A DNA stretch of 43,486 bases from a virus (taxonomy: Duplodnaviria; Caudoviricetes): positions 1 through 43,486 of IMG/VR virus record IMGVR_UViG_3300035105_000308, one strand, 5' to 3'. The position numbers were made by a program, and so were the translations under genes. Below, piece after piece: positions 776 to 42,052 of the stretch (its first letter is position 1; each line of letters begins with the position of its first letter). The notes under the pieces were generated by a model. It did no database searches. It was not told the DNA's origin and worked only from the letters and a program-made list of their open reading frames with translations.

Positions 776-803
776 AAAGAGCGTATTTTGGCATTTCTCT
801 TCA

Positions 804-831
804 ACGTCCGATAATGTATGATTAGTAAAAT
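804..831 (+). other. attL: dif-like site with degenerate XerD arm
   Basis: ACGTCCGATAA TGTATG ATTAGTAAAAT; XerC arm and spacer identical to the right site, XerD arm 6/11 identical. Confidence 0.85.
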
Positions 832-890
832 AAACAGATAGTTGTATGTAGGTTAAACATTTATCGGTAGTTAGATTAAACCTTTTTGTT

Positions 891-931
891 AACCCTTGTT
901 TGATGCAAATGCATCAGACAGGGGTTTTTTT
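891..931 (+). terminator. Intrinsic terminator-like hairpin
   Basis: AACCCTTGTTTGATGC-AAAT-GCATCAGACAGGGGTT stem (two G-U pairs) followed by a T run. Confidence 0.6.
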
Positions 932-1008
932 AGGCACACAGCGAAGAGGGTATACCCTGCCCGATGCGCCTCGTGAGAACGAGGTCCTTTGCTGTGTGCC
1001 TTTTTTTT
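932..1008 (+). promoter_or_regulatory. Structured leader (three-way junction) ending in T8; attenuator or ncRNA candidate
   Basis: 15-bp outer stem 932-946/987-1001, inner hairpins AGGG-TATA-CCCT and CCTCGT-GAGA-ACGAGG, directly upstream of RBS GGGAGG. Confidence 0.5.
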
Positions 1009-1021
1009 ATGGGAGGTTTAT

Positions 1022-1441
1022 ATGTTACGGGATGTTTTTTTCGGGATCGTAGTTTTGGGGTTTTTGAGTTTTTCTTCGTTAGTATCCGCGCAACAAACAA
1101 TTCCTATCGATCTACCTGCGAGCGAGATATCAATCATCAACGACGTTGCGGACCAGTATGGACTGGAGGGTGACGCTCGACTTCTTCTTTTTATAATCCG
1201 GAAAATTGAAAATGGCCGTCCTGGATACGCCGAGTTTGGAGTTTTACATCCGCGGGCTATCGGGCGGGGGTTCAGGGTGCAGTGCGAATGGGCTGCCGGC
1301 ACACTCAGAAAGCGATACAACGGTGATTTACAGGCTTTCGCTGAGCGCTGGTGTCCGTCCGACGCGCACCCTTTGAACCGAAACTGGTACACGAACGCTA
1401 TGTTTTATATGAAAAAGTGGGGAGCGTATGCCGGAAGTTAA
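1022..1441 (+). CDS. Secreted lysozyme/lytic transglycosylase-like protein
   Basis: RBS GGGAGG; signal peptide ending VSA-Q; SLT-like pattern VADQYGL...LLLFIIRKIENG...FG. Confidence 0.5.
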   Translation: MLRDVFFGIVVLGFLSFSSLVSAQQTIPIDLPASEISIINDVADQYGLEGDARLLLFIIRKIENGRPGYAEFGVLHPRAIGRGFRVQCEWAAGTLRKRYNGDLQAFAERWCPSDAHPLNRNWYTNAMFYMKKWGAYAGS

Positions 1442-2378
1442 ACCCCAACTGCATCAGTCACATTTGAGCTGTTTATATCGCTGTGGGGAGCAGTTTTATC
1501 GCATATATATTTGCGGGGAAAAAGAACCACCTGGCGTTGCTTTACTCGTCGGATCCGCTACGCACGAATCAGTGCAGAAAAATCTTATAAATAAAGTTGA
1601 GAAAGGATCCTTGCTGCCGGATGAGGCTGTCGGGGATTTTGCCCGGGACGCTTTTCTCCAGAGGTGGAGTGAAGGCTCTGTGCTTTTGGACAAGGACCAG
1701 CGATCTCTTGGGTTGAAAGCTGTCCAGGGGAAGGGCATAGATGAGGCTGTCAGGCTATCCCTTCTACATCATAGGGAGCTGGCTCCGGCTTTGAGGCCAC
1801 GTCCGGACGGGATTGAGAGGCCCTGGGTGCTTAAGTGCAAAGGGTATCCGTTCGATATTGCCGGACAGATAGACGTTCAGGAGGAGTATTTGATAAAGGG
1901 GCCGAAGGACGTTGTCTATTCTGCTATCCGCGACACGAAAACGCGAACAGTGGCTCCACCGCGTAACTGGGCGGACACTTCCGAGGCGATGACGCTCTAT
2001 GCTATGGCCGTCAAGGTTATAGACGGACGGATTCCTGACGAGATCTGGCTTGATTGCCTTATTAAAGGTGAAAGGCCGAGGCTTATATCCCTGCCAAGCA
2101 AACGAACGGAAGTTGATTTTATTGTCGCAAAAAACAGGTTTGAACGAGCTTGCGAGATCATAGAAAAAGGCGCTTTCACGCCTGCCAGCCGATCAGACTG
2201 GTGGTGTAGTGAGAAATTCTGCGGTTTCGCAGCGAATGGATCCTGTCGATTTTTTAATAAAGGTAATGGACCAAAAATACCAGTAAAAGTCAAAAAACAA
2301 GAAGGAGGTCGTTATGGTCGAGAGAAAGGAACAATCATCCCTGCCGGTTCAGAGCGCTGGTGGAACGCAATCCGTTGA
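1428..2378 (+). CDS. PD-(D/E)XK (RecB/Cas4-like) exonuclease
   Basis: GSATH, GQIDV, IRDTKT motifs; N-terminal Cys plus C-terminal WCSEKFCGF...C cluster. Confidence 0.75.
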   Translation: MPEVKPQLHQSHLSCLYRCGEQFYRIYICGEKEPPGVALLVGSATHESVQKNLINKVEKGSLLPDEAVGDFARDAFLQRWSEGSVLLDKDQRSLGLKAVQGKGIDEAVRLSLLHHRELAPALRPRPDGIERPWVLKCKGYPFDIAGQIDVQEEYLIKGPKDVVYSAIRDTKTRTVAPPRNWADTSEAMTLYAMAVKVIDGRIPDEIWLDCLIKGERPRLISLPSKRTEVDFIVAKNRFERACEIIEKGAFTPASRSDWWCSEKFCGFAANGSCRFFNKGNGPKIPVKVKKQEGGRYGREKGTIIPAGSERWWNAIR

Positions 2379-3318
2379 GACGGGGAGCGTAGTCAAGGCT
2401 TTCAGCTCGGAGGAACAGAAGCTGTCTATGGAGCTGGCATCCACGCAGGTGGCAGCGTCAGCGAAGGCTGAGGTGGAGGCTGCGTATGTTATGGCAATGC
2501 ATAACCGCAGGAATGAGGACGATGCCCGGGCAAAGATACTCAATCGGTGCAAAAACCTGATATTTGCGGAATCGGCGAAGTACAGCAAGCCTGTCGGGGG
2601 ATCGAAGATCACGGGTCTTTCCGTGAGGTTCGCGGAAGAGATGATCCGGCTCTGGGGTAATATCAAAACCCTACAGAACGTCATCTATGAGGATAACCTC
2701 AAACGGGTCATAAAAGTGACCGTCATCGATCTCGAGGCGAACTCATCGTATTCCTCTGAGATAACCATACAGAAGATCGTTGAAAGAAAGAACTCGTCCG
2801 GACGTGATGTCGTGGACGAGCGTGTCAACTCTTATGGTCAGAAAGTGTTTATCGTTGTGGCCACGGAGGATGAAATGCAGACGAAGGCGGGCGCTTTGGT
2901 ATCCAAGCTGATAAGGAATAACGGGCTCAAGCTTATCCCTGCGCATATCAAGCAGGAGGCGCTTGACGTCATAGAGAAAACCGTGCGGTCAGGAATAGAC
3001 GCGGATCCGGACGCTCATAAAAGAAAAATGGTTGACGGGTTCGCCAATATCGGCGTTAAGGCGTCAGATCTCGAGAGGTTTCTCGGGCATTCGCTGGATT
3101 CCGTATCCCCGAAAGAAGTGCAGGAGCTCAGGGACGTATATAACTCCATAAAGGACGGCGAATCTACCTGGGCGGAATACCTCAAAAAAGGAGCGGAGAA
3201 GGATCCCGAATCCGGGGATCTCTTTGAGGGAGGCGACGCGTCAACTCACACTCATCCCGGCGAGGCGTTTTCGGAGCAGGGCGGTAAAAAGAAAACGTCG
3301 AAAGGGGAGAGTAAGTAG
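2314..3318 (+). CDS. Putative single-strand annealing/recombination protein
   Basis: Coupled to the exonuclease; conserved phage-type motif YSKPVGG..I.GLSVRFAE....WGNI; low-complexity tail. Confidence 0.5.
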   Translation: MVERKEQSSLPVQSAGGTQSVETGSVVKAFSSEEQKLSMELASTQVAASAKAEVEAAYVMAMHNRRNEDDARAKILNRCKNLIFAESAKYSKPVGGSKITGLSVRFAEEMIRLWGNIKTLQNVIYEDNLKRVIKVTVIDLEANSSYSSEITIQKIVERKNSSGRDVVDERVNSYGQKVFIVVATEDEMQTKAGALVSKLIRNNGLKLIPAHIKQEALDVIEKTVRSGIDADPDAHKRKMVDGFANIGVKASDLERFLGHSLDSVSPKEVQELRDVYNSIKDGESTWAEYLKKGAEKDPESGDLFEGGDASTHTHPGEAFSEQGGKKKTSKGESK

Positions 3319-3774
3319 TGGAGCATACGATCCGTTTCATTGTCAAGGGCCATCCCAAACCGAAAGGAAGCAGGACCGCTTTCCGGCACAAGTATACCGG
3401 GAAAGTCGTGACCATAGAGTCGAGCAAGGGATGTAAACCGTGGATGAATACGGTCGCTATTTACGCTCAGCTTTACGCTCCAAAGACCGGCCCGTGGAAA
3501 GGCGAGGTCGAATTAAACGTGATCTTCTGGATGCCAAAACCGAAAAGCCACCCGAAGAAGAAGTACGTTACGTCCTGATGTAGACAAGCTTATGCGCGCT
3601 ATTCAGGACGCTTTGACGGGGATATTCTATGCCGACGACAGCCAGGTAACAAGTGGATATCGGCGCAAGGCTTACGCGGACGCTCCGGGGATCGAGGTCG
3701 AGATCATAAATGTGGATAAATATAGAGAAATTGAGGAGGCGGAGAAAAATGACGGAAGAAAAGAAAGTAAATAA
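3318..3774 (+). pseudogene. rusA: RusA-like Holliday junction resolvase, frameshifted near 3570
   Basis: N-half G.PKPKGS...GEVEL..IF.MPKPKS stops at 3578; the catalytic RPDVDKLMRAIQDALTG..Y.DDSQV continues in another frame. Confidence 0.8.
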
Positions 3775-4519
3775 CGAGCTCATCAGCCTATCCCCGAGTA
3801 AACTCAGCGTTTTGGTTGAGTGTCCTCGGTGCTTTTGGCTGCAGATGAACGCAAAAATAAAAAGACCGCGCGGTCCGTTCCCATCGTTACCCGGAGGAAT
3901 AGACCGTAAATTAAAGCCCTACTTCGATATGTACAGGGCAAAAGGTCAGATGCCACCGGAGTTTGAGGGGAAGTTGCCGGGCGTGCTTTTTCACGACCAG
4001 GCGCTACTCAGCAGATGGCGCAATTGGAGATCTGGCCTGTATTACAGGGACGAGGTTTTAAACGTGGAGATGGTCACGGCATTGGACGACCTTCTGGTCC
4101 TGGTGGAAGACGATCCGGATTCCGATGTAGGGAAAAAGAACGTTTATGTGCCTTTTGATTACAAGACTAAGGGGGGAGTTCCGAAGACGAACGGTGCTGA
4201 GTTTTATCAGACTCAGCTTAACTGTTACGAATTGGCGCTGAAAGCTAACGGATACGACACTTGCGGGAAAGGGGTACTTGCATATGTGTACCCAGAGGAT
4301 CTGGAACGCATCGACGATATGGTGCGACGTGTTGTGCCGTTTGATTTCGGGGTTGATGTCTACGAACTCCCCACCTCTATTGACGACGCAAAAGCGTTAA
4401 TTGAGAGGGCGTGTACTGTCCTGCGGGGACCGGCTCCGGCCTCGAATGCCGGGTGTGAGTATTGCAAGTATGCGTTTGAGTACGCTGAGTTCGAGGAGGC
4501 TGATAACGATGACAGATAA
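3749..4519 (+). CDS. Second PD-(D/E)XK nuclease
   Basis: LSPSKL....ECPRCFW, LDDL, FDYKT, QL..Y, CEYC. Confidence 0.75.
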   Translation: MTEEKKVNNELISLSPSKLSVLVECPRCFWLQMNAKIKRPRGPFPSLPGGIDRKLKPYFDMYRAKGQMPPEFEGKLPGVLFHDQALLSRWRNWRSGLYYRDEVLNVEMVTALDDLLVLVEDDPDSDVGKKNVYVPFDYKTKGGVPKTNGAEFYQTQLNCYELALKANGYDTCGKGVLAYVYPEDLERIDDMVRRVVPFDFGVDVYELPTSIDDAKALIERACTVLRGPAPASNAGCEYCKYAFEYAEFEEADNDDR

Positions 4520-5804
4520 AAACTACCAAATAATCGAGCTTAAAGCCGAGAACGTGCTTAACCTCAAGGCCGTCAGGATCCGTCCGGAGGGCAAATCCGT
4601 CGTTTTAACGGGCGATAATGAGGCGGGTAAGTCTAACGTCCTGAACGCTATATTTATGGCTCTGGCGGGCGACAAAGCGCCTGTACCCATAAGAAAAGGC
4701 GAGGAACGTGGTGAGGTCGTTGTTGATCTTGGGGATATCCTGGTCAAAAAAGTCTATACCCAGAAAGGCGAGAGGCTTGAGGTCATGAATGCTGAGGGGG
4801 CAAAGTTCGCAAGTCCGCAGACCTTGCTCAATAACATCCTGGGCAGGCTTACGTTTAACCCTATAGAGTTCGCGGAACTATCAAAAAATCCGGAAGGCAG
4901 ACGCCGTCAAAGGCAGATACTTGTGGATATGCTCGGGCTGGATTTCGAGCAGAGTGACGCAAAAATTGAGGAGCTTAAACAGCAGAGAGCCGAAAAACGC
5001 AAGGCTTTCAAACAGGCGGAAGCACTCCTGGGCGAGATGGATGCTCCGGAGGGAGGGTTGCCGGATGAGGAGCTGTCCTTGAGGGCCGAACTTGAAAAGG
5101 TCGAGGCGCTTGAGGCCAAGCAGGAGGCTTATCTGGACGCCGTTGCAGAGAGGGATAATCACCAGGCGGAGATCGAGGATAAAAAGGCGCATATCGTTGA
5201 GCTTGAGAAAATGCTCACGGAGGCCAGAGAGGATCTGGTGCGTTTGCAGACAGCGTCTATCCCTGTTCCGGACGAGGTAACCCCGGAACAGGTCCTTGAG
5301 GCAAAGGAAAAACTGGGAGAGATCGAGCAAACAAACAAGCTGGTCCGGCAGGCAAAACGCTACCGGGAACTGCAACAAGTATGCGAGGACACGGAAACTG
5401 AGATCTACGGGTTTGAAACGGAGATGTCTATTCTCCAGGCTGAGAAAAACCGAGCGTTGGCTGAGGCAAAATTCCCGGTTGAAGGGCTCGGGTTTGATGA
5501 GGAGAACGTCACGTTCAATAGTCTACCTTTCAGCCAGCAGTCAACGGCCAGGCAGCTTATTCTCTCCACGGCTATATGTATGGAGCTTAATCCTAAGCTC
5601 CGTGTGATATTGCTCCGGGACGCGTCTGTGGTGAGCACCGGGAACCTGAGGGCAATATGTGAAATGGCCGAAAAGAACGGATACCAGGTCTGGATTGAGC
5701 GTGTGGACGATTCCGGGAAGGTTGGATTCTATATTGAGGATGGTGAGGTTAAAGCCATAGACGGCAAGGAGGTGAAAAATGACGATGTTAATGACGCACA
5801 ATAA
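4509..5804 (+). CDS. SbcC/SMC-like coiled-coil ATPase
   Basis: Walker A GDNEAGKS, long coiled coil, C-terminal signature-like and Walker B-like (VILLRDAS) segments. Confidence 0.75.
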   Translation: MTDKNYQIIELKAENVLNLKAVRIRPEGKSVVLTGDNEAGKSNVLNAIFMALAGDKAPVPIRKGEERGEVVVDLGDILVKKVYTQKGERLEVMNAEGAKFASPQTLLNNILGRLTFNPIEFAELSKNPEGRRRQRQILVDMLGLDFEQSDAKIEELKQQRAEKRKAFKQAEALLGEMDAPEGGLPDEELSLRAELEKVEALEAKQEAYLDAVAERDNHQAEIEDKKAHIVELEKMLTEAREDLVRLQTASIPVPDEVTPEQVLEAKEKLGEIEQTNKLVRQAKRYRELQQVCEDTETEIYGFETEMSILQAEKNRALAEAKFPVEGLGFDEENVTFNSLPFSQQSTARQLILSTAICMELNPKLRVILLRDASVVSTGNLRAICEMAEKNGYQVWIERVDDSGKVGFYIEDGEVKAIDGKEVKNDDVNDAQ

Positions 5805-7647: not shown

Positions 7648-8372
7648 TGGAAAGCCATAATGCTATAAATATGGAAAACTGGACCATTCTGTGCCCTGGG
7701 CCATCGTTGAATAGCGTTGTCGGTATGAAAGGTTGGTTTGCCGAACATCGTGACGAGGTCGGCGTAATTGCTGTTAATGGAGCGATATTGCATCTTCCTT
7801 TTGCAATAGACTATTGGGCGGTAGTGGATCCAGAAGTTTTCACAACGGTATCTAAACTGATGGACCTGGAGAACTTATCATCGGCCGTCAAAATCTGGAC
7901 ATACTGGGGGTTTGAGGATATGGGCCGATCTCATGACGGGGCCCGCTGGGACGACAACGTCTTGTCGCTTGCGCAGAAGTTCGAGAAGGAAGTCTGGCAC
8001 AGGCCGGAGAACCCGGACGACATAAAAGAGCAGTATCCCGAGTCTATCGTGCCGTTCAAAACGCCAGAAGTTGAGATCCCCTGGAACGAGTTTACCGTAT
8101 TTACGGCAATATCTCTTGCTATCAAAAAGGGTGCACGCTCAATCACCCTTTATGGGGCGGACATGGCCGGGGAAGGTTACTTCAAATCCGGGCTTACAAA
8201 CTGGCGGATGAACCATAAAGAGAACCGGTGGTTCCGTGAGAGGCATTACATGAACCACATAATATGCGCGTGCGCAAGTCGGGGAATAAAAATCGACGTT
8301 TTTCAGGTCATAAAACCGGAAAAGGAAGAAAAGAAAAAGGAGAAAAATGGAAGCCGTATTAACAAAGCCTGA
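7647..8372 (+). CDS. Maf/DUF115 (sialyltransferase-like fold) protein
   Basis: ILCPGPSL, IAVN, DYW...D, AISLAIKKGARSITLYGADM motifs. Confidence 0.6.
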   Translation: MESHNAINMENWTILCPGPSLNSVVGMKGWFAEHRDEVGVIAVNGAILHLPFAIDYWAVVDPEVFTTVSKLMDLENLSSAVKIWTYWGFEDMGRSHDGARWDDNVLSLAQKFEKEVWHRPENPDDIKEQYPESIVPFKTPEVEIPWNEFTVFTAISLAIKKGARSITLYGADMAGEGYFKSGLTNWRMNHKENRWFRERHYMNHIICACASRGIKIDVFQVIKPEKEEKKKEKNGSRINKA

Positions 8373-9459
8373 GACCAAAGTACAGGCCGAAAATAAAGAG
8401 GAGGGAAGAGAGGATATGATTGCAAAAAAGTATTTAATTACAGGTATCACGGGTTTCGCGGGTCCTCACCTGGCGAAGCTCTTACTGCGGGAAGGGCACA
8501 TCGTCTATGGCCTTATTAGGGGCTCCAACGGCCGGGAGAACGACCTTCTGGACATCCTCTCCCCGGACGAGCTTTCACAGATCAGGTGGGTTTATGGCGA
8601 TCTTACGGATATATTCTCGCTTGAGGAGGCTTTCGCTCATGAGCAGTACGACGGTGTTTTTCATCTTGCTGCGCAGAGCCACCCGCCGACAAGCTTTACA
8701 AACCCGGTCCTCACGTATCAGGCGAACGTCATGGGCACGGTTAACCTTATAAAGGTTATTGAAGAGTATCAGCTCGATTGTCATTTTATGTTTTGCTCCA
8801 CGTCGGAGGTTTATGGGGACGCCTGCAAGGACGTGGGGATCCTCACCGAGGATCTTCCACTTACGCCGTCAAACCCCTATGGGGCCAGCAAGGCTGCTAT
8901 GGACCTATATGTCCGCGAAAGGTGTAAAAACAAGAAGATCAAGGGCTTTATAACCCGGGCGTTTTCTCATACGGGCCCGCGTCGGGGTCATACATTCTCG
9001 ATATCCTGTGATGCTTATAACCTTATCCTGGCAAAGCTCCAAATGGAGAAGGCTCAGCGTTACGGTAACGTTACGCTTAAGGTGGGGAACCTTGAAACGA
9101 AGAGGATCGTCGTGGATGTGAGGGATATGGTCCGGGCGTACTATCTGCTTATGCAGAACTACGAAAACGGCGAGTCTTATAACATCTGTGGTCCTGCCGA
9201 TTCTGTTCAGAGAATGGGCTTTTTTACGGACGAGCTCATCCGGATTGCGGAGGCTTTCAACGTGAAGAAGGAGGTGGATCCGAGGTATTTCCGAGAGATA
9301 GATATTCACGTGCAGATCGGCAGCACAGAGAAGCTTTTAAGCCGTATTGACTGGGAGCCTGTAATCACGATAGAGCAGACCTTGCGGGACTTGCTGGAGT
9401 ATTGGGAGGTTAAACTCAGGAAAAAAGACGCGTCTATGACGTTTTCGGAAGGAGTGTAA
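8347..9459 (+). CDS. NDP-sugar dehydratase/reductase (GDP-mannose 4,6-dehydratase/Rmd-like SDR)
   Basis: LITGITGFAG, HLAAQSH, STSEVYG, PYGASK; true start may be 8416. Confidence 0.88.
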   Translation: MEAVLTKPETKVQAENKEEGREDMIAKKYLITGITGFAGPHLAKLLLREGHIVYGLIRGSNGRENDLLDILSPDELSQIRWVYGDLTDIFSLEEAFAHEQYDGVFHLAAQSHPPTSFTNPVLTYQANVMGTVNLIKVIEEYQLDCHFMFCSTSEVYGDACKDVGILTEDLPLTPSNPYGASKAAMDLYVRERCKNKKIKGFITRAFSHTGPRRGHTFSISCDAYNLILAKLQMEKAQRYGNVTLKVGNLETKRIVVDVRDMVRAYYLLMQNYENGESYNICGPADSVQRMGFFTDELIRIAEAFNVKKEVDPRYFREIDIHVQIGSTEKLLSRIDWEPVITIEQTLRDLLEYWEVKLRKKDASMTFSEGV

Positions 9460-11513
9460 TGGTTGCCGTGAAAAACGAAGAAAAGACGAAAATCGTCATA
9501 TTCGGGTACGCCGGGTTCGGGGATTGTATCTATCAGTTTCCTTTCGTCCGGGAGGCCAGCAAGCAGTATAAAGAGGTTTATCTATACACGCCGTTTCCGT
9601 TTCTGTACGAATCTTTGCCGAACGTGAAGTTCATCCCGCTGGAGACCAAGCTTGCGACCTGCGCGGAGACAATGAGCAAGTATGAAGAGTCGTTCTGGCA
9701 TGACGAGCCGGGATCCGGGTACGATACTGACCGTGTCCGTTTCAACTATCACGACGGCATGAAAGCCGGCCGGGGCATGATCGAGTGTTGGGACCAGGCC
9801 ATACCTATCCCGGGCAAAAAGATTGATTTCCAGATACCTCTACGTCCGGAATGGCTGAAAGAGGCAGGAGATATCATCCGGCGTATTGGCGCAAAGAAGA
9901 AGGTATGCCTTATAAAGCCACCCGGATATCGCAAAGAATGGCCGAATACCGCACGCATACCAAAACCCGAGTATTTTCAGCACCTTATCGACGCTTACCA
10001 GGATGAGTATTACTTCATATCCATAGGGAACCGGAACCATGAGAAATACGTCGGCAAGCTCCGGGGGATAGATTACCGGTTTGATTTTGGGGAACTGTCC
10101 TTGACCACGATCTTGGGTCTTACGGCCTTGTCGGATATGGTGATTGCTTATATCAGTATGCTGTTCGCGTGTGCCGTGGCTACCGGGACGAAGGCATTTT
10201 GTCTTTTTGGGGGATATTCTCCGTCGGAGCTCTGGATCGATACCGAGAGAATGCCGATGGACCGTATCGGCTACCTGGGCCCGGACGATCCTTGCTCATG
10301 TCTTGATATTCGGCATAACTGTAACCGTGATCTTGACCTTGAAAAGCTCGATAAAAGGTTCGGGGAGCTACATAACCGTCAAATAGGCTCTAAAACGGCC
10401 GTAAATGTGCCCAGAATAGGCAATAAGAAGCAAAACATGCTCATCTGCAGGGTAAGAGCCGAAAGAGCTGCAAAGATCGCTCAAAACCCCTATATACGCG
10501 ATAATTTCAACGTTTTTACGGTAGATCACGACACCGTCACGTCATATCTGGAGCATACCGGCGTTTTCGCGCGTTGTTACACTTACCCGGCTCTGGATAA
10601 TCCTACCTTATCGCTTTATTCCGAGCGCCAGGAGAAGAACACTCGGCAGATGATCGACGAGATCCTGGACTCCCATAAAATCGAGCTGGTTATAAACGCT
10701 CAGAGGTTGCATCCGTACGCGAACTGGATGGATGAGGCGTGCAAAGAAAGAGGGATCAGGCGGATTTATGCCGAGAGTTTTTTTGACGAACGCATGATAT
10801 TTGACTGGACCGGGCTCCAGTATGACTTCCCGAACGATATATCCCGGTTTATTGATCTCGTTCCGGCGAGCGAATCTCCGGTCCTGCCGTACGGGACGCG
10901 TGAAAATCAGCCACCATTCATTTCGAAGAAGGCGCTTTTGGAGAAATACGGCACGACAGAAAAGACAAAGACGATCGTTGTCTTGGGCCAGCTTTTATGG
11001 GATATGAGCATTAAAAAAGCACCGTTTCCATGCACGGGCGGGTACGTGGAATGGCTTGCGTCGATATTTAACCTCAATCCGGACACTATGTTCCTTTTCA
11101 AGATGCACCCGCGGTACAGGCGTGTGATTTCCGAGGAGATGGAGTTTTTGATGTCCTTCCCGAACGTTCAGCTCATCGAGGAGAGCCTGGATTCCCTGTT
11201 TGAGGCTTATGACTTCTTCCTGGCATATTCGTCCACGACAATATTTGAGGGGCTCATCAAGAACAAGGTATTCGCTACCGGGGGATATCATCTCTGCGGG
11301 AATGATTTCATAACGTATCAGATAAAGAATAACCGTCAAAAAGAGGATCTACACACGAAAATGCGGGCGTTTTCAATAGATCCGGATGTCCGTCACAGGT
11401 ATTTAAGTTTTATTTGCAACTATTACGCGGTTCCGCTCGGCTCGAAGAGGCTATATGACAAGCTGACGCTGGATCCGCATGACTATTACTCGGGGGTGGA
11501 AAATTGTGGATAA
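9459..11513 (+). CDS. Two-domain glycosyltransferase (GT9-like plus KpsS/KpsC-like)
   Basis: N-terminal GFGD..Y.FP and later SDMVIA...A.A.GTK...LFG; C-terminal VLGQ...D.SI, FKMHP, SSTTIFEGLIKNK. Confidence 0.65.
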   Translation: MVAVKNEEKTKIVIFGYAGFGDCIYQFPFVREASKQYKEVYLYTPFPFLYESLPNVKFIPLETKLATCAETMSKYEESFWHDEPGSGYDTDRVRFNYHDGMKAGRGMIECWDQAIPIPGKKIDFQIPLRPEWLKEAGDIIRRIGAKKKVCLIKPPGYRKEWPNTARIPKPEYFQHLIDAYQDEYYFISIGNRNHEKYVGKLRGIDYRFDFGELSLTTILGLTALSDMVIAYISMLFACAVATGTKAFCLFGGYSPSELWIDTERMPMDRIGYLGPDDPCSCLDIRHNCNRDLDLEKLDKRFGELHNRQIGSKTAVNVPRIGNKKQNMLICRVRAERAAKIAQNPYIRDNFNVFTVDHDTVTSYLEHTGVFARCYTYPALDNPTLSLYSERQEKNTRQMIDEILDSHKIELVINAQRLHPYANWMDEACKERGIRRIYAESFFDERMIFDWTGLQYDFPNDISRFIDLVPASESPVLPYGTRENQPPFISKKALLEKYGTTEKTKTIVVLGQLLWDMSIKKAPFPCTGGYVEWLASIFNLNPDTMFLFKMHPRYRRVISEEMEFLMSFPNVQLIEESLDSLFEAYDFFLAYSSTTIFEGLIKNKVFATGGYHLCGNDFITYQIKNNRQKEDLHTKMRAFSIDPDVRHRYLSFICNYYAVPLGSKRLYDKLTLDPHDYYSGVENCG

Positions 11514-19519: not shown

Positions 19520-19529
19520 AAATGCGCTT

Positions 19530-19689: not shown

Positions 19690-19703
19690 ACTCGGAGGTG
19701 TAC

Positions 19704-27723: not shown

Positions 27724-27726
27724 TCG

Positions 27727-28808: not shown

Positions 28809-28823
28809 AAAGGAGGGCACAAA

Positions 28824-29762: not shown

Positions 29763-29820
29763 TAATGGCCGAGGAAGCCGTTATTTTTTTTCGGGGAATT
29801 TAAAATTTAAGGAGGAAGTT

Positions 29821-30237: not shown

Positions 30238-30554
30238 GGATGGCGATTCAGGTATCTTCGTTGGACCTGGATTGCCGTAAATGTTCGGAAGCGAATAGAA
30301 AGAATTATGGATGTACCGGGGAACCAGCGATCCCGACCATGTGGGAGTTTGAGGGAGAGTATCTCAAAAAATGTCCGGTACGTTTGTTAAAAAAAGAGAG
30401 CCTATGGTTCATTAAATATTATCGATTTTTCAAGCAGGGTTATCTGGCAAACGACGGTTCGATCGGGCATCAGCCAGCGAAAATGCTGGAGGCATTCACC
30501 GTCATTGATGCCGAAATTGACAAGGTAAGATCGGAGGGGAAGGGTAATGAATAA
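30228..30554 (+). CDS. Tail assembly chaperone -1 frameshift extension (T)
   Basis: The -1 frame from 30228 reads KKLR into the ORF starting at 30240. Confidence 0.7.
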   Translation, partial: KKLRMAIQVSSLDLDCRKCSEANRKNYGCTGEPAIPTMWEFEGEYLKKCPVRLLKKESLWFIKYYRFFKQGYLANDGSIGHQPAKMLEAFTVIDAEIDKVRSEGKGNE

Positions 30555-32529: not shown

Positions 32530-32541
32530 GGAGCTTACAAA

Positions 32542-32883
32542 ATGGCAGATTTCACATATGTGGCAGATAGGGTAGTCGAAGAAGAAGTAATGTTCGACAC
32601 CCTTATCTCCGAGGCAGAAAACGGTTTTGAGCAGAGAAGATCCCGTCGTGAAAGTCCATTGCGAAAGTTTAAGCTTTTTTTCACCAACCGCACAGTTTCG
32701 GAAATGGAAGAAGTAAGAGACTTTTTTATTTCAAAAAAGGGCGCTTTTACAAGCTTTACCTGGGAGAACCCTAACGACTCCACAGAGTATACGGTCAGGT
32801 TCTTAGATGACGCCTTTAAGCAAAAAAGAGTAGCGTTTAATGTATTTTCTTTTAACTTTGAAATATTGGAGGTCCGGGCGTGA
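32542..32883 (+). CDS. Distal tail protein (lambda M-like)
   Basis: ENGFEQR, FF..KKG...SFTW.NP, VRF. Confidence 0.75.
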   Translation: MADFTYVADRVVEEEVMFDTLISEAENGFEQRRSRRESPLRKFKLFFTNRTVSEMEEVRDFFISKKGAFTSFTWENPNDSTEYTVRFLDDAFKQKRVAFNVFSFNFEILEVRA

Positions 32884-33572
32884 GGACACCTGATTCAGTA
32901 TTTATTCAAGAAAAAAACAAACAAGAGAATGCCCCTATACGGCTTTATGAAATAGAGGACTACGACGGGGCCGGAAACAACCTCTATCTCGCCGAAAACG
33001 ACGAAGATGTCTCCTTCGGCACGCTATACTATCTTGCTGACACAGACGGGAATAGGATCACTGATACAGACGGAAACTATATTATTGTTAACTACACGCC
33101 TCAAACAACCTATACCCGGTTCCCGATAATATGCGAAAAAATAAACGAGAACACGCAAGGTGAAATTGACTATGTCAGGGTGACCCTGGCAAATGTGTCT
33201 CAGGTTATCCAGTCTTATTTAAAATCTTATGATTTCCGAGAAAAAAAAGTAACTATAACAACAATATGGAGAAATCATCTTGACAATGAGGATATATCTA
33301 TATCCGACATCTATTATATTGACAGTTATGTTTCCGACATTAAAAACGTTACATTTACGTTAACGAGTAAATTTGACCTTTTAGATGTAGAAATCCCTTT
33401 CAGAAAATATGGGAGAACCTATTGTAGTTGGAAGTTTAAGTCGACTGAATGCGGATATTCTGGAGGAGAATCAAGTTGCAATCGTTCTCTCCAGAGATGT
33501 AGAGAACTAAGTAATGTTTTAAGATTTGGGGGATATCCCTCGGTACCGGCGCGGAGGCTCTTTATACAATGA
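32880..33572 (+). CDS. Minor tail protein (lambda L-like)
   Basis: CSWKFK..ECGY...C......C...RFGGYP. Confidence 0.85.
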   Translation: MRTPDSVFIQEKNKQENAPIRLYEIEDYDGAGNNLYLAENDEDVSFGTLYYLADTDGNRITDTDGNYIIVNYTPQTTYTRFPIICEKINENTQGEIDYVRVTLANVSQVIQSYLKSYDFREKKVTITTIWRNHLDNEDISISDIYYIDSYVSDIKNVTFTLTSKFDLLDVEIPFRKYGRTYCSWKFKSTECGYSGGESSCNRSLQRCRELSNVLRFGGYPSVPARRLFIQ

Positions 33573-33994
33573 TAACTCAAAATAAGCTATGTAAAAAATA
33601 TGTAGGCATTCCGTTTGAACATCGTGGGCGAACGGCGAATGGAATAGATTGTTGGGGCCTGATTATTTTAGCTTATAGAGATATTGGAATAAATATATTG
33701 GATTTAGAAAACTATGAGTATGAATGGGAAAAAAATGGGAAAAATCTTTTTTTACAAAATTATTATGAAAACTGGGAAAAAGTAGACGATTTGAAAGATA
33801 TAAGATTTATGGACCTTTTAATGTTGAAAAATAAATCCGAGATACCTTGTCACGCAGGGCTATATTTAAGCGATGGTAGGTTTCTTCAATGTGCAAATAA
33901 GGTCGGAGTTGTTAACTGTGTGCTGAACGATAATTGGAAAAACAAAATTTATGGTATATATCGATATGTTTCGAATAAGGATAAAAAAATATGA
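33569..33994 (+). CDS. NlpC/P60 tail assembly protein (K-like)
   Basis: YVGIPF...GR...GIDCWGL, HAGLY. Confidence 0.85.
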   Translation: MITQNKLCKKYVGIPFEHRGRTANGIDCWGLIILAYRDIGINILDLENYEYEWEKNGKNLFLQNYYENWEKVDDLKDIRFMDLLMLKNKSEIPCHAGLYLSDGRFLQCANKVGVVNCVLNDNWKNKIYGIYRYVSNKDKKI

Positions 33995-36900
33995 TAAAAA
34001 TTATATGGATACCTAATATTGTTGATTCAAAAAACAGAAAAGAACGGGTATTTAAATATAACCGGGATTTAACTATTAAGGATTATATGCAAAAAGCTGG
34101 AATAAATCTTGATAAAAACAAGGTTATATTATCTGGTAAAAAAATAGAAGATCTGACGTTAAAGCCCAAAAAAAACGAAGATATCATTATTACTCCGGAT
34201 GTTGAATTGTTTTCTACGGTAGCTGGAATGTTTTGGTTTTGGGGAAGCAGTTTGATATATGGAGCGCTACAAATAGCTGCTGTGTCTGGTATGGTAGCTT
34301 ATGGAATATATTCTATGGTATCAAATCCGCGAAAACCTGTTTTAAATACTGCGACACCAAATAGCCCCAGGGGGATAGATGAAAGCTCTCCAACTTATGG
34401 ATGGGATGGAATACAAACAATTCAGGATGTGGGCGTTCCTGTTCCAATCCTTTATGGCGAGCACAAAGTAGGTGGAAATATAATAAATTCATTTATCAGG
34501 TATGATGGGGACGACAGCTATCTTAATGTTTTATTGTCATTATGTGAAGGAGAAGTATATTCAATATCAGATGTGAAAATAAATGAAAATCCAGCGAGCA
34601 ATTATGACGATGTTACGACAACCACAAGAATGGGAACAAATTCTCAGTCAGCAATTGATAATTTTGAAGACGCGCACAATATTTACAGCGTCAATGTGGA
34701 CCTACCAAAAGACAACCCATATGTTTATACAACAGTTGACAATGATGTTGAGGCTTTGGAAATACATTTATCGTGTCCTGGAGGTTTATTTTCTATTTCC
34801 GGAGAAGGCGGTATGGGAAGCTCTAATGTTACCTATAAAATTGAGTATAAGGTTCACACAGATCCAGCCTATACAGATCTTGGAGAGACTACGGTTTCGG
34901 CATCTTCGAGATCTGCTGTAAGGAGAATATATCGTATAGAGGGCCTTTCTCCAGAACAATATGACGTAAGAGTAACTAAAACGTCAGAAGATAGTGGCAC
35001 GGAAAATCAAAGGGATTTAAAGTGGGTACAAATAGATGAAATTAAAACAGACAATTTATCATATCCTAATACAGCCTTGCTTGGTATAGAGGCGATGGCC
35101 ACTAATCAACTTTCAGGCAGTATGCCTAATTTTAGCTGTATAGTTAAAGGTCGAAAAGTATCAGCGCCAGTGATAATGAACGGAGCCGTTCAGATAGATT
35201 GGGAAGACTACTATTGGGATTCCAGTTCAAGTCAGTTTAAATTACTATCGGACGATACCGTTTTATCCTGGGACGGGACCTCATATTCAGAGCAATATTG
35301 TGCAAATCCAATTTGGTGCATAAAGGATCTTTTAACTAATTCACGGTATGGCCTTGGAGAGTTTATTACATCATCTTTTATGAGCGATACACAGCTTGTT
35401 GAAATGGCAAAATACTGCGAAGAAAAATTGGACGATGGAAATGGGGGGTATGAGAAACGATTCCGGTTGGATGTAGTCATCGATGGCGGGGGGAAAGCCC
35501 TGGACGTTATATCTCAGCTGGCTACTGTTTTCAGGGGGCTTCCGTTCTATTCCGCAGGCAATATTAACCTTCGGATAGATAAGCCGGGGACCCCGGTCCA
35601 GGTCTTTGGGATGGGCAATATTTTAAAAGATACCTTTAATCAAAGCTGGAAGTCCATCAAAGAAAAACCTAACGTTGTTGAAGTTCAGTATTTAAATAAG
35701 GATAAAGATTATAAGCAGGAAACTATCGGATACATCGATGAGGCAGCAATAACCGCTGGGGATCCTTTACGCAAAAAAACAGTTAAATTATTCACGACTC
35801 GGACCAGTCAGGCTATGCGTGAAGCCAGATATGCTCTCAAAGTAGCCAAGTATATCGACCGTACCATTAATTTTAAGGCCAGCATCGATGCTATCGCGTG
35901 CCAGGCGGGGGATCTTATTGCGGTATCACACGACGTTTTAAATATTGGCTCAAGCGGAAGGGTCTTGACGGGGGGCACTACTACCTCGGTCCCTTTAGAC
36001 CAATCAGTTACTTTGCAGGCTGGAGAAACATATAAGCTCAGGATCCAGTTTTCAGACGATACAATTGAGGAAAAAACCGTCAGTACAGGGTCCGGCACAC
36101 ATAGCACAATAGAAGTTGTCGGGGATCCTTTTACATCCGCGCCATCAGCATATGATAAGTATATGATAGGCACGTCCGAAACTGTAAAAGAGGATTTTCG
36201 TATTATTTCAATGTCTAAGGACAATAAGTTCGAAGTTGATATAACGGCAATTGCATATGATGAAGATGTTTATGATGATACCGCGGTGACTTTACCTGAG
36301 GATAATACCAGTAATCCTGATTATACTATCCCACCAGTATCCGACCTGCAGTTGAATGAACGAATTTATACTCGAGATGATGGGACCGTAGAATCGGCTA
36401 TTGATGTCTATTTTTTGAAGCCGGACCTATCGGACTATAGCGAAGCGAATAGGTATAAAGGGGCAAATGTTTATATCCGGGAGGATTCCGATGCCGCGTG
36501 GAGGTTCGCAGGATATACCGAGTCTGACCACCTTCAAATAACAGGGAACCTGTCAGTGGGTACAACTTATTATATTTGCGTGACCAGCGTGCCTTATGAG
36601 GGCAATGAGACCGCAAAAAGTACAGCTCCCAATGACAGTATAACCCTTGCCGGAAAAACTTCGGCTCCGTCAGACGTGACTAATTTTGACTATGATTTTA
36701 CAGATGAGCTGCTTTTGACGTGGGACAAAGTGTCTGACGCGGATATTGCTGGATATGAAATTAGAGACACGGACAGCAGCTGGGGGGTAGACAATCCGGA
36801 CTTGGTATATCGCGGGGCAGTCAATAGCTATACTTACAGGCCGGGAACGCGGTCACCAGGGACGCTTAATATAAAAGCGTATAACACCAGCGGGGTATAT

Positions 36901-38157
36901 TCAGATAATGCCGTAACTGTTACCCCGACAAACTCGGCCCCTGGAGCACCTACAGGCTTTGCGTCAACGGTATTTTTTAATATCGCTCAGCTTGACTGGT
37001 CGGACGTGGCCGACGCTGATATCCAATACTATGAGGTTTACCGATCAGAGTCTAACGCCTGGACGGGGGAAGAAGCTCTGGAGTGTAAGGTGTCCGGGAA
37101 AATGGCCATAGTGGAGGCGAGGAAACCCACCGATGGGGAGGCAGACAGCGCTACAGATAGTACCGTGGTTGATGCGGATCTTATCGGGGAGGACGACGAC
37201 TTTTGCGTTGGGGATATTATAAAGATTTCTACCGGGGATAACGCCGGTGAAGAAAAAACAATTACAGAGTTTGACGGAGATACTGGGACGATAACTATAT
37301 CCGGTACCTGGAGCACTAATCCCAGCGCCACGGATAAGTTTTATATCTACGACAAGTCATATTTCAAGGTTCGGGCGGTAGACAGCTATGGCAACGGAAC
37401 GTTTTCCTCGTCGCTGGCTGTGGCTTTTGAAACCCTTACCGAAGCATCCTTGGGCGACAATATAGTAACGGCCAGAAAGGTTACGACAGGGGAGCTTATA
37501 ACTTTGGCAGCGCAGATCAAAGACGCCATTATAACCGCGGCTAAAATAGCCGATGCAACCATAACAAATGCAAAGATAGCCAACGGGACAATCGAAAACG
37601 CTAAGATAAAAGACGGAACCATAGAAAGTGCAAAAATATCATCATTAGATGCAAATAAAATCTCGGCATCTCAGCTTGACGCAATTACAGCTAATACGGG
37701 AACTCTATCGGTAGATGAAGAAATAACCGTTGGAGAAAATACGATAATTGATGGTGACAATGAAGTTATAAAAGTTTACAGCGACAATATTACGATTGAA
37801 AGCAATGTAAATGATATGCTCGATTGGCTTGAAAATGATGGAACAGATCATACATATGCAACAACATTGACAGCCGGTGATTACACTCCTGCGGACCTCG
37901 CTACGCATATACAGACGTTAATGAGAACCGCGGGTGATAGCAACACAACCGTAACGTGGGACTCGACTACAAAGAAATTTACAATAGCAAATTCAACGTT
38001 ATCTGCACTTACCTTGGAATGGTCTACCGGCGCAAATGATTCAGAAAATTGCGGACAAGCATTAGGGTTTGATATAACAGCGGACGATTCAGGATCGCTA
38101 TCATATACAGGGGATGAAGAGGCAACTTTACGAGTCAAATTGGGGAAACTATCATAA
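33991..38157 (+). CDS. Tail tip/host-specificity protein (J-like, fused I-like N-terminus)
   Basis: PVPILYGE, YPNTALLG, NP.W...DLLTN.RYGLG, FN3-like repeats, IT.AKI repeats. Confidence 0.9.
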   Translation: MIKIIWIPNIVDSKNRKERVFKYNRDLTIKDYMQKAGINLDKNKVILSGKKIEDLTLKPKKNEDIIITPDVELFSTVAGMFWFWGSSLIYGALQIAAVSGMVAYGIYSMVSNPRKPVLNTATPNSPRGIDESSPTYGWDGIQTIQDVGVPVPILYGEHKVGGNIINSFIRYDGDDSYLNVLLSLCEGEVYSISDVKINENPASNYDDVTTTTRMGTNSQSAIDNFEDAHNIYSVNVDLPKDNPYVYTTVDNDVEALEIHLSCPGGLFSISGEGGMGSSNVTYKIEYKVHTDPAYTDLGETTVSASSRSAVRRIYRIEGLSPEQYDVRVTKTSEDSGTENQRDLKWVQIDEIKTDNLSYPNTALLGIEAMATNQLSGSMPNFSCIVKGRKVSAPVIMNGAVQIDWEDYYWDSSSSQFKLLSDDTVLSWDGTSYSEQYCANPIWCIKDLLTNSRYGLGEFITSSFMSDTQLVEMAKYCEEKLDDGNGGYEKRFRLDVVIDGGGKALDVISQLATVFRGLPFYSAGNINLRIDKPGTPVQVFGMGNILKDTFNQSWKSIKEKPNVVEVQYLNKDKDYKQETIGYIDEAAITAGDPLRKKTVKLFTTRTSQAMREARYALKVAKYIDRTINFKASIDAIACQAGDLIAVSHDVLNIGSSGRVLTGGTTTSVPLDQSVTLQAGETYKLRIQFSDDTIEEKTVSTGSGTHSTIEVVGDPFTSAPSAYDKYMIGTSETVKEDFRIISMSKDNKFEVDITAIAYDEDVYDDTAVTLPEDNTSNPDYTIPPVSDLQLNERIYTRDDGTVESAIDVYFLKPDLSDYSEANRYKGANVYIREDSDAAWRFAGYTESDHLQITGNLSVGTTYYICVTSVPYEGNETAKSTAPNDSITLAGKTSAPSDVTNFDYDFTDELLLTWDKVSDADIAGYEIRDTDSSWGVDNPDLVYRGAVNSYTYRPGTRSPGTLNIKAYNTSGVYSDNAVTVTPTNSAPGAPTGFASTVFFNIAQLDWSDVADADIQYYEVYRSESNAWTGEEALECKVSGKMAIVEARKPTDGEADSATDSTVVDADLIGEDDDFCVGDIIKISTGDNAGEEKTITEFDGDTGTITISGTWSTNPSATDKFYIYDKSYFKVRAVDSYGNGTFSSSLAVAFETLTEASLGDNIVTARKVTTGELITLAAQIKDAIITAAKIADATITNAKIANGTIENAKIKDGTIESAKISSLDANKISASQLDAITANTGTLSVDEEITVGENTIIDGDNEVIKVYSDNITIESNVNDMLDWLENDGTDHTYATTLTAGDYTPADLATHIQTLMRTAGDSNTTVTWDSTTKKFTIANSTLSALTLEWSTGANDSENCGQALGFDITADDSGSLSYTGDEEATLRVKLGKLS

Positions 38158-38450
38158 TGTCATATGGACTTAAAGCTAAAGACGACCGGGGCCATCTTGT
38201 TCTTGATACTGATTTCCTGCTTAACAGAGTAGCATTTACGAAAAACGTTAATTCTGGAGCAAGCAGTTCTGAGTCTGTGCCAGCGCTTTCCGGAAAGAAA
38301 TCGGTCGAGACCGCAATTTGTGTTGATCCATCGGCGGCCTATCAATCGCCCCATGAGGTCAGCCGGAGTGGAACCACGGTGTCGTGGTCTGCTCATTCGG
38401 AATCGTGGGTTCGTTGTGCAAGTGTAGTTTTTAGTTTTATTTATAACTGA
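38157..38450 (+). CDS. Small tail-tip associated protein
   Basis: MSYGL...D..G motif typical of genes directly after J. Confidence 0.6.
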   Translation: MSYGLKAKDDRGHLVLDTDFLLNRVAFTKNVNSGASSSESVPALSGKKSVETAICVDPSAAYQSPHEVSRSGTTVSWSAHSESWVRCASVVFSFIYN

Positions 38451-38452
38451 TT

Positions 38453-39139
38453 ATGTCGAGATATAACCTTCAAATATACAACAAAAAAAATCAGGTCCTG
38501 GTGGACGGGGTCTACAAGAACTTTTCTGTTTATGAACAGGGCACAGAATCTCTTTCGGCCCGGACATTAACATCGGTTAGTTTTTCGAATACTACTTTAC
38601 AGATTCCCCTGATAGCGATACGTCCGTCAACATCCGGGTTTGTTTCGGTATTTGGATACACAACGTCTGGAGATGAGTGGAGTGGGTTCAAGGTTATGTC
38701 CGATTCGGATCTTGATGTTGACTGGAAAGCATATCTTGCACATCCGCAGGCTGAGGCAGCAAGTCATGGGCTGATTGTGAAAAATGATAAAGGCGAATAT
38801 GTTTTTGATTCAGCCCGAGAATATTTCAGCATATTCGATGTCGAGAAGAATATATCAATTGCTATTGCAGCGCCGGATGCCACTTCCGGGGGGTATCAGG
38901 ATATTACGCATTCGGGCATAAGTAATCCTTATTATGTCCTGGCTCCGCTTGGGTGGTGGGAACGGCGTTATGTTATGCCATATCAAGGTCCGGTATATTT
39001 TTTTAGAACGGGGATAAAAAAACTATCCTCAACATCTGTCAGAGTAGGGTGGACGTATTGTTATGAGGGGGTCACGAATTATGCAGATAGCTTTGGGTAT
39101 AACCCAGATTATAATTTAATAATTTTAGAAAATAGATAA
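38453..39139 (+). CDS. Tail-tip associated protein
   Basis: Y.LQIYN and GL.V.N..G..VFDS repeats. Confidence 0.6.
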   Translation: MSRYNLQIYNKKNQVLVDGVYKNFSVYEQGTESLSARTLTSVSFSNTTLQIPLIAIRPSTSGFVSVFGYTTSGDEWSGFKVMSDSDLDVDWKAYLAHPQAEAASHGLIVKNDKGEYVFDSAREYFSIFDVEKNISIAIAAPDATSGGYQDITHSGISNPYYVLAPLGWWERRYVMPYQGPVYFFRTGIKKLSSTSVRVGWTYCYEGVTNYADSFGYNPDYNLIILENR

Positions 39140-41043: not shown

Positions 41044-41355
41044 ATGAAAATTAAAACTGAAATAGAAGTCGCAGTTGTGATGGGAGGGGTTTCGCATAAT
41101 AGCACAAGTTGTCAAGGGTATCTGCCAGAGGGAACTCGTCACGAGGATGTTGTCCGGGTCTTTGGCTTGCCCCAGATTGGGGGATCCCTGGACAGCAAGG
41201 TCCAGGCCGAGTGGGTAGGGAAGATCAACGGACTGGTTTTTACAATCTACGATTACAAGTCAAACGTCGCTGTTGAAGAAAACACCGACTGGCACATCGG
41301 AGGCGAACAGAAGTTCGTCGCAGATCTGGTAAATATCTATTTCAACGCTCGCTAA
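41044..41355 (+). CDS. Conserved-looking small phage protein
   Basis: RBS AGGAGG; KVQAEW...FTIYDYK...WHIGG. Confidence 0.65.
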   Translation: MKIKTEIEVAVVMGGVSHNSTSCQGYLPEGTRHEDVVRVFGLPQIGGSLDSKVQAEWVGKINGLVFTIYDYKSNVAVEENTDWHIGGEQKFVADLVNIYFNAR

Positions 41356-41377
41356 CAAATAGGGGGAGGGGGAGCAA

Positions 41378-41545
41378 ATGAAAAAACAAGACTTAAAAAA
41401 CAAGTTTTTGACGGTCAGGGTGTCATCGGAGGAGTTGGAGCAAATATATGATGATGCCAAGAAGCACGAACGTTCGGCCAGCAGTTTTATTCTGTGGGTA
41501 TACCACGAATGGAGGAAACGGTTCAGGCCGAAAAAGAAAAAATAG
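41378..41545 (+). CDS. Ribbon-helix-helix (Arc/MobC-like) regulator (55 aa, not in ORF track)
   Basis: MKKQDLKNKFLTVRVSSEELEQIYDDAKKHERSASSFI... Confidence 0.7.
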   Translation: MKKQDLKNKFLTVRVSSEELEQIYDDAKKHERSASSFILWVYHEWRKRFRPKKKK

Positions 41546-41557
41546 AGGAGGTTGGTT

Positions 41558-41878
41558 ATGTTTCCTAAATACGCAAAAGTACGTTTAAAATGGAAGGCGT
41601 TTCGTTTTTACTGCCGGATGAGAAAAAAGCTCGGATCCCCGGATTTTAAAAACGATTCAAAAATGGCGGAGTTTTTCGGGTATAGCCGGGGGTTGATCAG
41701 TCAGATCCTGACGGCGTCTAAGGATTCGGACAAGTATCCGAACTTCCACCTGTCCAGCGAGTTTATAGCCACGGTGCTTTATAAAACCGGCGCGCGGTTC
41801 GATGAGTTTTTCGATATCGTGGAGGATCCGGATTACGATCCGAACAACAAGTACACCAAGTTTTTCAAAAATGATTAA
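41558..41878 (+). CDS. Xre/Cro-like HTH protein
   Basis: DSKMAEFFGYSRGLISQIL...S.EFIA......GARFDEFF; RBS GGAGG. Confidence 0.65.
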   Translation: MFPKYAKVRLKWKAFRFYCRMRKKLGSPDFKNDSKMAEFFGYSRGLISQILTASKDSDKYPNFHLSSEFIATVLYKTGARFDEFFDIVEDPDYDPNNKYTKFFKND

Positions 41879-41898
41879 TGCCTTTTTTCCATTTTTAC

Positions 41899-41926
41899 TT
41901 GACTTTTTTCCGGGGTATGGTAAAGT
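41899..41926 (+). promoter_or_regulatory. Outward-facing sigma70-like promoter toward attR
   Basis: TTGACT-N16-TAAAGT with extended TG. Confidence 0.45.
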
Positions 41927-41988
41927 CTGTTTAATCGCGTTAAACAAAAGCGATTTGTTCTTTCAAAGATTGCATCAGATAGGGGTTC

Positions 41989-42012
41989 GGGATTGCGGGA
42001 GCAATCCTTTTT
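41989..42012 (+). terminator. Intrinsic terminator just inside attR
   Basis: GGATTGC-GGGA-GCAATCC followed by T5. Confidence 0.6.
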
Positions 42013-42024
42013 AAATCATTGCCA

Positions 42025-42052
42025 ACGTCCGATAATGTATGTTATGTTAACT
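42025..42052 (+). other. dif: attR = chromosomal dif site (XerC/XerD)
   Basis: ACGTCCGATAA TGTATG TTATGTTAACT; XerD arm 10/11 and spacer 5/6 to E. coli dif; flanking genes converge on it. Confidence 0.9.

Follow-up and report, generated by a model that had tools for sequence, protein, structure and literature searches.

A near-intact long-tailed prophage probably integrated at a bacterial dif site by the host XerCD recombinases

The virus record IMGVR_UViG_3300035105_000308 (Duplodnaviria; Caudoviricetes), a provirus record of 43,486 bases that was analyzed over its whole length and is referred to here as the window, holds what its gene complement identifies as a near-intact 41-kb long-tailed (siphovirus) prophage. 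The ends of this prophage lie at a dif site, and no recombinase was recognized among its genes. We propose that it is an element of the same type as the satellite phage TLC-phi and the gonococcal genetic island, integrated by XerC and XerD, recombinases supplied by the host, and assign this reading a probability of about 0.68. Integration by one XerCD route or another is, in our judgment, very probable.

Integration boundaries

The element is delimited by an exact 19-bp direct repeat, CAACGTCCGATAATGTATG, with copies at 802-820 and 42023-42041, and the end of the repeat coincides exactly with the border between spacer and XerD arm of a dif site. By length it ranks third among the exact direct repeats of the window, behind two local tandem repeats near 13.6 kb, and the chance expectation for such a repeat between two end zones of 400 nt is ~6e-7. 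The right-hand site at 42025-42052, ACGTCCGATAATGTATGTTATGTTAACT, is a canonical 28-bp dif. In the left-hand site, the right arm (last 11 bases, ATTAGTAAAAT) matches the XerD arm of dif at 6 of 11 positions. A scoring matrix gave 48.4 bits to the right site and 29.2 to the left, versus 1.2 for the next best site in the window; because it was built from 32 distinct dif-like 28-mers fetched with a window-derived pattern, it ranks sites and does not prove their identity. GC content is 0.47 inside the element and 0.41 in both flanks. An independent contig from sequencing run X4 bridges the left junction (456-1439) without a difference, and it is to this junction that the independent-assembly check applies. 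The element ends carry the pattern of a dif mimic, with XerC arm and spacer kept, the XerD arm divergent and one putatively working dif restored. A previous sequence-only reading had proposed an Xer-exploiting element on the basis of a 19-bp repeat of XerC arm plus spacer and a near-canonical dif restored at the right end. Both features proved correct, and known Xer-exploiting elements have junctions of this kind.

Three related units of ~45 nt are found within 631-871, each consisting of an inverted XerC-like arm and the first three spacer bases (TGT). The two units left of the element (643-670 and 748-775) may be scars of earlier insertions at dif.

The window DNA is present in 2020 oil-field metagenomes, which may represent one campaign; at least half of 1-9000 is contained in 17 runs, three of which may be the source. 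Depth in run X4 was 15 on the far flank and 6.5-7.6 on the phage, per-contig values that yield no copy number. A second allele in this run, at about one third of the depth, departs from the window sequence after base 251, and a six-change variant spans 362-485; the region beside dif differs between strains. The exact right-hand 27-mer had no match in viral contigs. A near-identical 17-nt stretch occurs on both phage arms (910-926 and 41971-41987), flanking the att core, and its left copy forms the right half of the 16-pair hairpin listed in Table 1. A promoter-like site at 41899-41926, from a scan not above chance, is directed across attR; in an excised circle it would face the early genes, from which integration might uncouple it. 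KOPS-like octamers (resembling FtsK-orienting polar sequences) are biased 8:1 towards attR, which we discounted because the G-rich strand bias (skew 0.17) alone would yield such a ratio.

Identity of the site and of the host

A site pattern built from both window ends matched 69 metagenome stretches. The canonical XerD (right) arm is present in all 69 and the identical 28-mer in 12, while the left form of the window, with its degenerate XerD arm, occurs in 0 of 69. Using 28 metagenome-assembled genomes (MAGs) chosen via the flanking exonuclease gene, we found the core motif with at most one mismatch in 13 and as one exact copy in 7; a reversed control gave 4 hits. In four of five MAG contigs, GC skew sampled over 40 kb on each side is positive before the motif and turns negative there, the fifth contig having neither the XerD arm nor a switch. 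Across the motif of MAG G101, which bears the identical 28-mer, skew goes from +0.14 and +0.13 to -0.04 and +0.01. Among metagenome loci with at least 4 kb on both sides, several of them near-duplicates, skew was greater on the left than on the right in 24 of 25 and changed sign in 21. All nine recombinases from five MAGs had XerD (four) or XerC (five) as their best match, seven above the curated cut-off, and G101 encodes two XerC/XerD-type recombinases. XerC and XerD are thus encoded in relatives, MAGs of the likely host phylum, and probably also in the host. Overall, conservation of the motif, its placement at GC-skew switches and the XerC/XerD genes support the view, tested on relatives, that the site behaves as the host dif, as the sequence-only reading had assumed.

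The host is likely a member of the Omnitrophota, because every organism-naming match to the flanking peptidase (8 of the 120 listed) says Omnitrophota or Omnitrophica. The closest relative of the flanking exonuclease (42%) comes from a MAG titled Planctomycetia, and such labels interleave with Omnitrophota in the tree. Left-flank positions 172-803 had no match among the host loci compared. Second half-sites in four MAGs with two matches were rejected as prophage borders, being chance hits or a duplicated contig end. Separately, a 1.4-kb metagenome contig (L260) holds two full dif-like copies at 639 and 1031, 392 bp apart, and WYL domains are encoded both in a small reverse-strand phage gene (40398-40910) and in the dif-adjoining host gene (42153-42965).

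Searches for a recombinase

The element appears to be without a recombinase of its own. Pfam and PHROGs profiles detected no tyrosine, serine or DDE recombinase in the 70 open reading frames (ORFs) scanned, out of 172 of at least 60 amino acids (aa), and PF00589, PF00239, PF00665 and PF07508, run against all six frames of the entire record, returned nothing. Custom profiles for serine integrases (from the relatives described below) and for XerC/D, run against 1272 six-frame segments, gave best E values of 2.5 and 2.3 and no remnant. The two largest unannotated early ORFs were examined further, a scope in which small ORFs are not excluded by structure. The 334-aa ORF (2314-3318) resembles viral hypothetical proteins, its nearest named lead being annealing proteins (0.76), and the 684-aa ORF (9459-11513) resembles glycosyltransferases. 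These results agree with the sequence-only reading, which had recognized no recombinase in the ORFs.

Relatives and their integration modules

We found the window's terminase family at 17 loci in 15 of the 301 MAGs from the class of G041; three of these loci are cut by contig ends and 14 could be scored. Each of the 14 prophages carries its own integrase near the left end, a large serine integrase in 12 and a tyrosine integrase in two (one with a CI-like repressor). The MAG relatives have terminases of 54-59% and portals of 49-62% identity, their head and tail genes are ordered as in the window, and the 103-aa terminal gene is often shared as well. No member of this group was found at dif, and the DNA fetched around the 17 loci contains no half-site; in G190 and G242 the dif motif lies ~200 kb and ~1,100 kb from the prophage on the same contig, and elsewhere it lies on other contigs or was not found. 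Among 24 viral records with the 103-aa terminal gene, eight have a serine integrase (one also a tyrosine integrase) and most others are fragments. A quick terminase tree places the window in a clade of 14 rows (support 100) with these relatives, nearest to G004 and the serine-integrase-bearing G445 in an order that the tree leaves unresolved. In the window, the position of the integrase is occupied by the first phage gene.

The family so appears to change its integration module, the window member having a dif mimic where others have a gene, and we suggest that an integrase module was probably exchanged for the mimic. No remnant was found and the early region is a different module, which fits a replacement better than a deletion that followed the insertion. 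The sequence-only reading had held that close relatives with an integrase, simply deleted here, would count against it. Relatives do carry one, as far as 54-59% terminase identity is close, and the deletion itself is disfavored on the two grounds just given.

A loose half-site pattern produced only scattered one-mismatch hits in 29 relatives. In some relatives a conserved look-alike follows the 103-aa gene at a distance of 200 bp; it was discounted, as it lies in a coding region. The relative G598 contains genes for an Lcl-C domain protein, an Avd-like protein and a reverse transcriptase in a row (L514:11435-13574), the gene set of a diversity-generating retroelement, located in the early region and not at the tail.

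Xer sites in other tailed phages

When 8 of the 64 parts of the viral collection were searched with a canonical Xer-site pattern, 120 stretches matched, corresponding to an estimated ~1000 overall (without a chance control), and the spacers of these sites are mostly unlike that of the window dif. Within 35 records chosen for size, a tyrosine recombinase was found in nine (six of the 16 near-complete ones) and a serine recombinase in one of 11 of the others, DDE enzymes not being searched for. A terminase is encoded in 12 of 16 large loci examined, and the Xer site is intergenic in 16 of 17. Four more tailed phages without a tyrosine or serine recombinase match share the arm and spacer, with right arms of 6-8 matches in 11 (from 26 hits, many probably due to chance). 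Many tailed phage contigs lacking a tyrosine recombinase (L284-L403) bear a single full Xer-type site, frequently next to the gene for the terminase, and recurring families share the site. These counts support the view that Xer sites are common in tailed phages, which feeds one of the alternatives considered below.

Proposed mechanism and alternatives

Upon infection, the phage genome would circularize as double-stranded DNA, its attP presenting a perfect XerC arm and spacer together with a poor XerD arm, and host XerCD would make a single crossover between attP and dif. A working dif would be restored at the right end and a weak site left at the other, so that excision would be rare and the prophage kept in place. 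As the searches detected no XafT domain, the reaction would be activated by FtsK, like that of the gonococcal island, or by another factor, such as a phage activator unrelated to XafT; the NikA-like and helix-turn-helix (HTH) genes beside attR are candidates. For the same reason, the element would not be a member of the TLC subtype. The dif mimic would represent a third interchangeable integration module of the phage family, beside serine and tyrosine integrases. Far more tentative is a general version, which we think rather doubtful: that long-tailed phages routinely use a dif mimic of 17-19 bp as an exchangeable stand-in for an integrase gene; that serine integrase, tyrosine integrase and host XerCD replace one another within this family; that the present member activates XerD with a small non-XafT protein, a candidate for which is encoded beside attR; and that many of the hundreds of integrase-less, Xer-site-bearing tailed phages scored as lytic are temperate.

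Several observations weigh against integration by host XerCD as proposed, or against its extension to the lineage. Screening of terminase relatives for a dif-like attP, a check the sequence-only reading had suggested, came up empty: the canonical dif pattern is in 0 of 40 relatives' records (most of them distant fragments, at 30-46%), nine of which have a tyrosine recombinase, and no dif-like site lies near the shared terminal gene in the 24 viral relatives or around the 17 MAG prophage loci. The nearest terminase relative, G004 (60%, 73% complete), has no integrase and no dif-like site across its tail-to-early junction. With no second copy of the window's attP in a close relative, a lineage trait is not established. 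Neither an attP junction nor an empty dif, for which the sequence-only reading had likewise suggested a search, was seen over 1-3000 in four runs (in contigs, which drop rare forms; X21 and X22 barely cover the region) or among the 69 metagenome matches, a set that may lack records of the window's own genome. The XafT domain (PF12375, DUF3653) was absent in a six-frame search, placing the element outside the TLC-phi subtype. As to the state of the prophage, RusA is split over two frames by a frame change (3318-3774), and a CI-like repressor with a peptidase domain was not found, unlike in G598.

The phage site might serve mainly to resolve multimers of circular DNA, like plasmid cer and psi, with insertion at dif a by-product that would still be the work of host XerCD. 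Full Xer-type sites are indeed common on non-integrated tailed phage contigs, as the 120 matches above attest. Yet the spacer of the window site equals that of the host and its XerD arm is poor, a combination that suits stable integration over efficient resolution; moreover, no ParA was identified in the 70 ORFs scanned, and two other copies of the gene with the ParB-like domain have it joined to a methyltransferase. We therefore consider this explanation unlikely. Less probable still is an ancestral phage integrase that was aimed at dif, made the insertion and was later lost. The left-end integrases of all 14 scorable MAG prophages and of 8 of 24 viral records (the rest mostly fragments) would accommodate such a loss, but there is no remnant in six frames, ~190 bp separates attL from the first gene, and the early region is a different module, its nucleases being shared with the integrase-less G004. 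Furthermore, no integrase-bearing relative was found at dif, and the left arm keeps 6 of 11 dif bases.

A similarly low probability attaches to a CTX-like route, in which the attP arm would pair with the inverted arm at 844-871 into a hairpin or cruciform and XerC alone would exchange strands. This inverted arm, with its TGT spacer start, is located within the element, 30 nt from its left end, and attL has two related units to its left. The arm could allow such a hairpin but folds weakly (-5.6 kcal/mol, z -1.28, not significant), with a bulge at the cleavage border; a full 6-bp spacer identical to that of dif would be superfluous for a hairpin, and the virion DNA is probably double-stranded. 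Homologous recombination over 19 bp by a phage annealing system, or mis-assembly, seems very improbable. The phage nucleases and possible annealing protein would be in keeping with the former, and the latter could still affect the right junction, since the independent check covers the left one. However, both leave half a dif site on the phage unexplained, the left junction is bridged in another run, and the words of those contig sets, at 31 letters, exceed a 19-bp repeat in length.

Gene content of the prophage

Assignment to Caudoviricetes with a long non-contractile tail follows from the genes for terminase, portal, major capsid protein, tail tube, tape measure and lambda-like tip, all of which are present (Table 1), and no tail sheath family was found in the 70 ORFs scanned. 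The tailed siphovirus of ~41 kb described by the sequence-only reading is thereby confirmed, in particular through the GpA-type terminase, the lambda-family portal, and the tail tube, tape measure and tip. Packaging is presumably of the cos type, as we assume from the GpA-type terminase alone. A viral locus search with the first phage gene gave no match, and the single-sequence model of the HTH protein was unusable (predicted local distance difference test, pLDDT, 48). The gene encoding the ParB-methyltransferase fusion is broken by one extra G, which two other copies lack. At 11479-12735, the C5 methyltransferase gene overlaps a 385-aa frame matching a phage methyltransferase-associated family, both frames being open for more than 1 kb. 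The O-like gene ends within tandem 23-bp and 14-bp repeats (13551-13655).

Table 1. Features of the window and the evidence for them
Feature	Position	Strand	Basis
Host flank: end of TPR protein gene	1..171	+	
Older degenerate unit copy: inverted XerC-like arm (ends 670), half arm at 690	643..700	.	Alignment to next unit 49 vs shuffle maximum 48; beats 1000/1000 narrowly
Inverted XerC arm + TGT, close to attL on its left; with the attL arm, a perfect 13-bp inverted repeat	748..775	-	
Left repeat copy (2 bp + XerC arm + spacer)	802..820	+	Exact repeat search
attL: dif-identical XerC arm + 6-bp spacer, then degenerate XerD arm (probably phage-derived)	804..831	+	Repeat, matrix score, contig bridging junction
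Third inverted XerC-like arm, inside phage left end, one extra base at arm/spacer border	844..871	-	Similar to unit 643-670 (score 40 vs shuffle maximum 36)
Terminator-like 16-pair hairpin inside left end	891..926	+	Pattern match only
First phage gene, 139 aa, hydrophobic N-terminus, probable lysozyme-fold hydrolase	1022..1441	+	297 relatives; all-helical model, weak lysozyme-fold matches, best E 1.7
Recombination/repair module	1428..5804	+	Two PD-(D/E)XK nucleases, possible single-stranded DNA-annealing protein (2314-3318), RusA in two frames (3318-3774), SbcC-like ATPase
Sugar epimerase, likely glycosyltransferase (9459-11513), C5 DNA methyltransferase with overlapping second frame	8347..12735	+	
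Lambda O-like replication initiator, internal tandem repeats (likely origin)	13128..13640	+	PF04492 E 1e-14
Packaging/head: small terminase, GpA-type large terminase (17415-19280), lambda-family portal, probable protease, cement, Mu gpT-like major capsid protein	16596..24407	+	
Long non-contractile tail: terminator, tube, tape measure, lambda M/L/K/J-like tip proteins	26988..39139	+	
103-aa gene, at or near distal end of related prophages	41044..41355	+	24 viral loci; synteny
Small NikA-like (ribbon-helix-helix type) gene + HTH gene adjoining attR; candidate regulators or Xer activator	41378..41878	+	PF21983 E 3e-4; phrog_3642 E 1e-3
Terminator-like hairpin just before attR	41989..42008	+	Pattern match only; count not above shuffles
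Right copy of 19-bp repeat	42023..42041	+	Exact repeat search
attR: complete canonical dif, putative working chromosomal site	42025..42052	+	Identical 28-mer in 12/69 metagenome loci and at GC-skew switch of MAG G101
Host flank: DnaQ-like exonuclease-WYL gene + YiiX-type peptidase gene	42153..43486	-	

Significance and comparison with known systems

Lifestyle predictors score tailed phages as temperate by their integrase, so an element of this kind would be missed once off the chromosome. The present case also places the dif motif of an uncultured phylum at GC-skew switches, and, with XafT lacking, either FtsK-driven integration or an unknown Xer activator is indicated. Gokushoviruses reportedly use dif as well.

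The sequence-only reading had called the lifestyle possibly undescribed, a claim that does not stand: a tailed phage using host Xer at dif is already in print. Legionella phage LME-1 is 30 kb long and has a dif mimic of 22 bp, one site being left intact and another weakened; it is classed as an Xer-exploiting element (IMEX) of the host XerL system (PMC9765430) and forms infectious, T7-like short-tailed virions (PMC12407071). Like LME-1, the window element is a tailed double-stranded DNA phage of tens of kilobases with a shortened dif mimic and an O-like replication gene, and it has one intact dif and one weakened copy, which in LME-1 stabilizes the prophage. In contrast, LME-1 is short-tailed, T7-like and 30 kb long and uses a single recombinase, XerL, on a palindromic site, whereas the window phage is long-tailed, with a GpA terminase, a lambda-like tail and a canonical XerC/XerD site. 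Integration of LME-1 was shown by experiment and that of the window phage is deduced from sequence; the absence of an integrase gene from LME-1 is not stated outright in the parts of those papers that were accessible. What is new here is the long-tailed virion, the two-recombinase XerCD system and the swap of an integrase for dif. The case thus takes Xer hijacking beyond a single short-tailed phage, LME-1 with its unusual recombinase, to a long-tailed one and to the canonical pair of XerC and XerD. We found no long-tailed phage integrated at a XerCD dif in the literature searched, outside of which most subscription papers and supplements fell, and an oral inovirus at dif proved a false lead (10.1101/633727).

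TLC-phi, a Vibrio cholerae satellite, and the gonococcal genetic island share with the window a dif-like XerC arm and spacer, a divergent XerD arm and a double-stranded substrate, and neither is a tailed phage (PMC5357621, PMC6744903). TLC-phi needs XafT (DUF3653), which was not found in the window; the gonococcal island is also without it (PMC5357621, PMC6744903). Among Vibrio prophages, double jelly-roll phages and inoviruses of the dif type have a "left-armed 17-bp" attP and form arrays at dif and, likewise, integrase-encoding and dif-targeting forms coexist and differ in their lysogeny module (PMC12715192, PMC11630473). Unlike the window phage, these dif-type phages are tailless or filamentous, smaller than 16 kb, and have rstR/xafT terminal genes (PMC12715192, PMC11630473); tailed Vibrio prophages used their own integrases, dif being occupied by filamentous and tailless ones (PMC11630473). 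Within the window's own family, the MAG relatives differ from it in having a serine or tyrosine integrase at the left end and a location other than dif wherever they were placed, and these sister prophages provide a natural comparison for the trading of an integrase for a host site.

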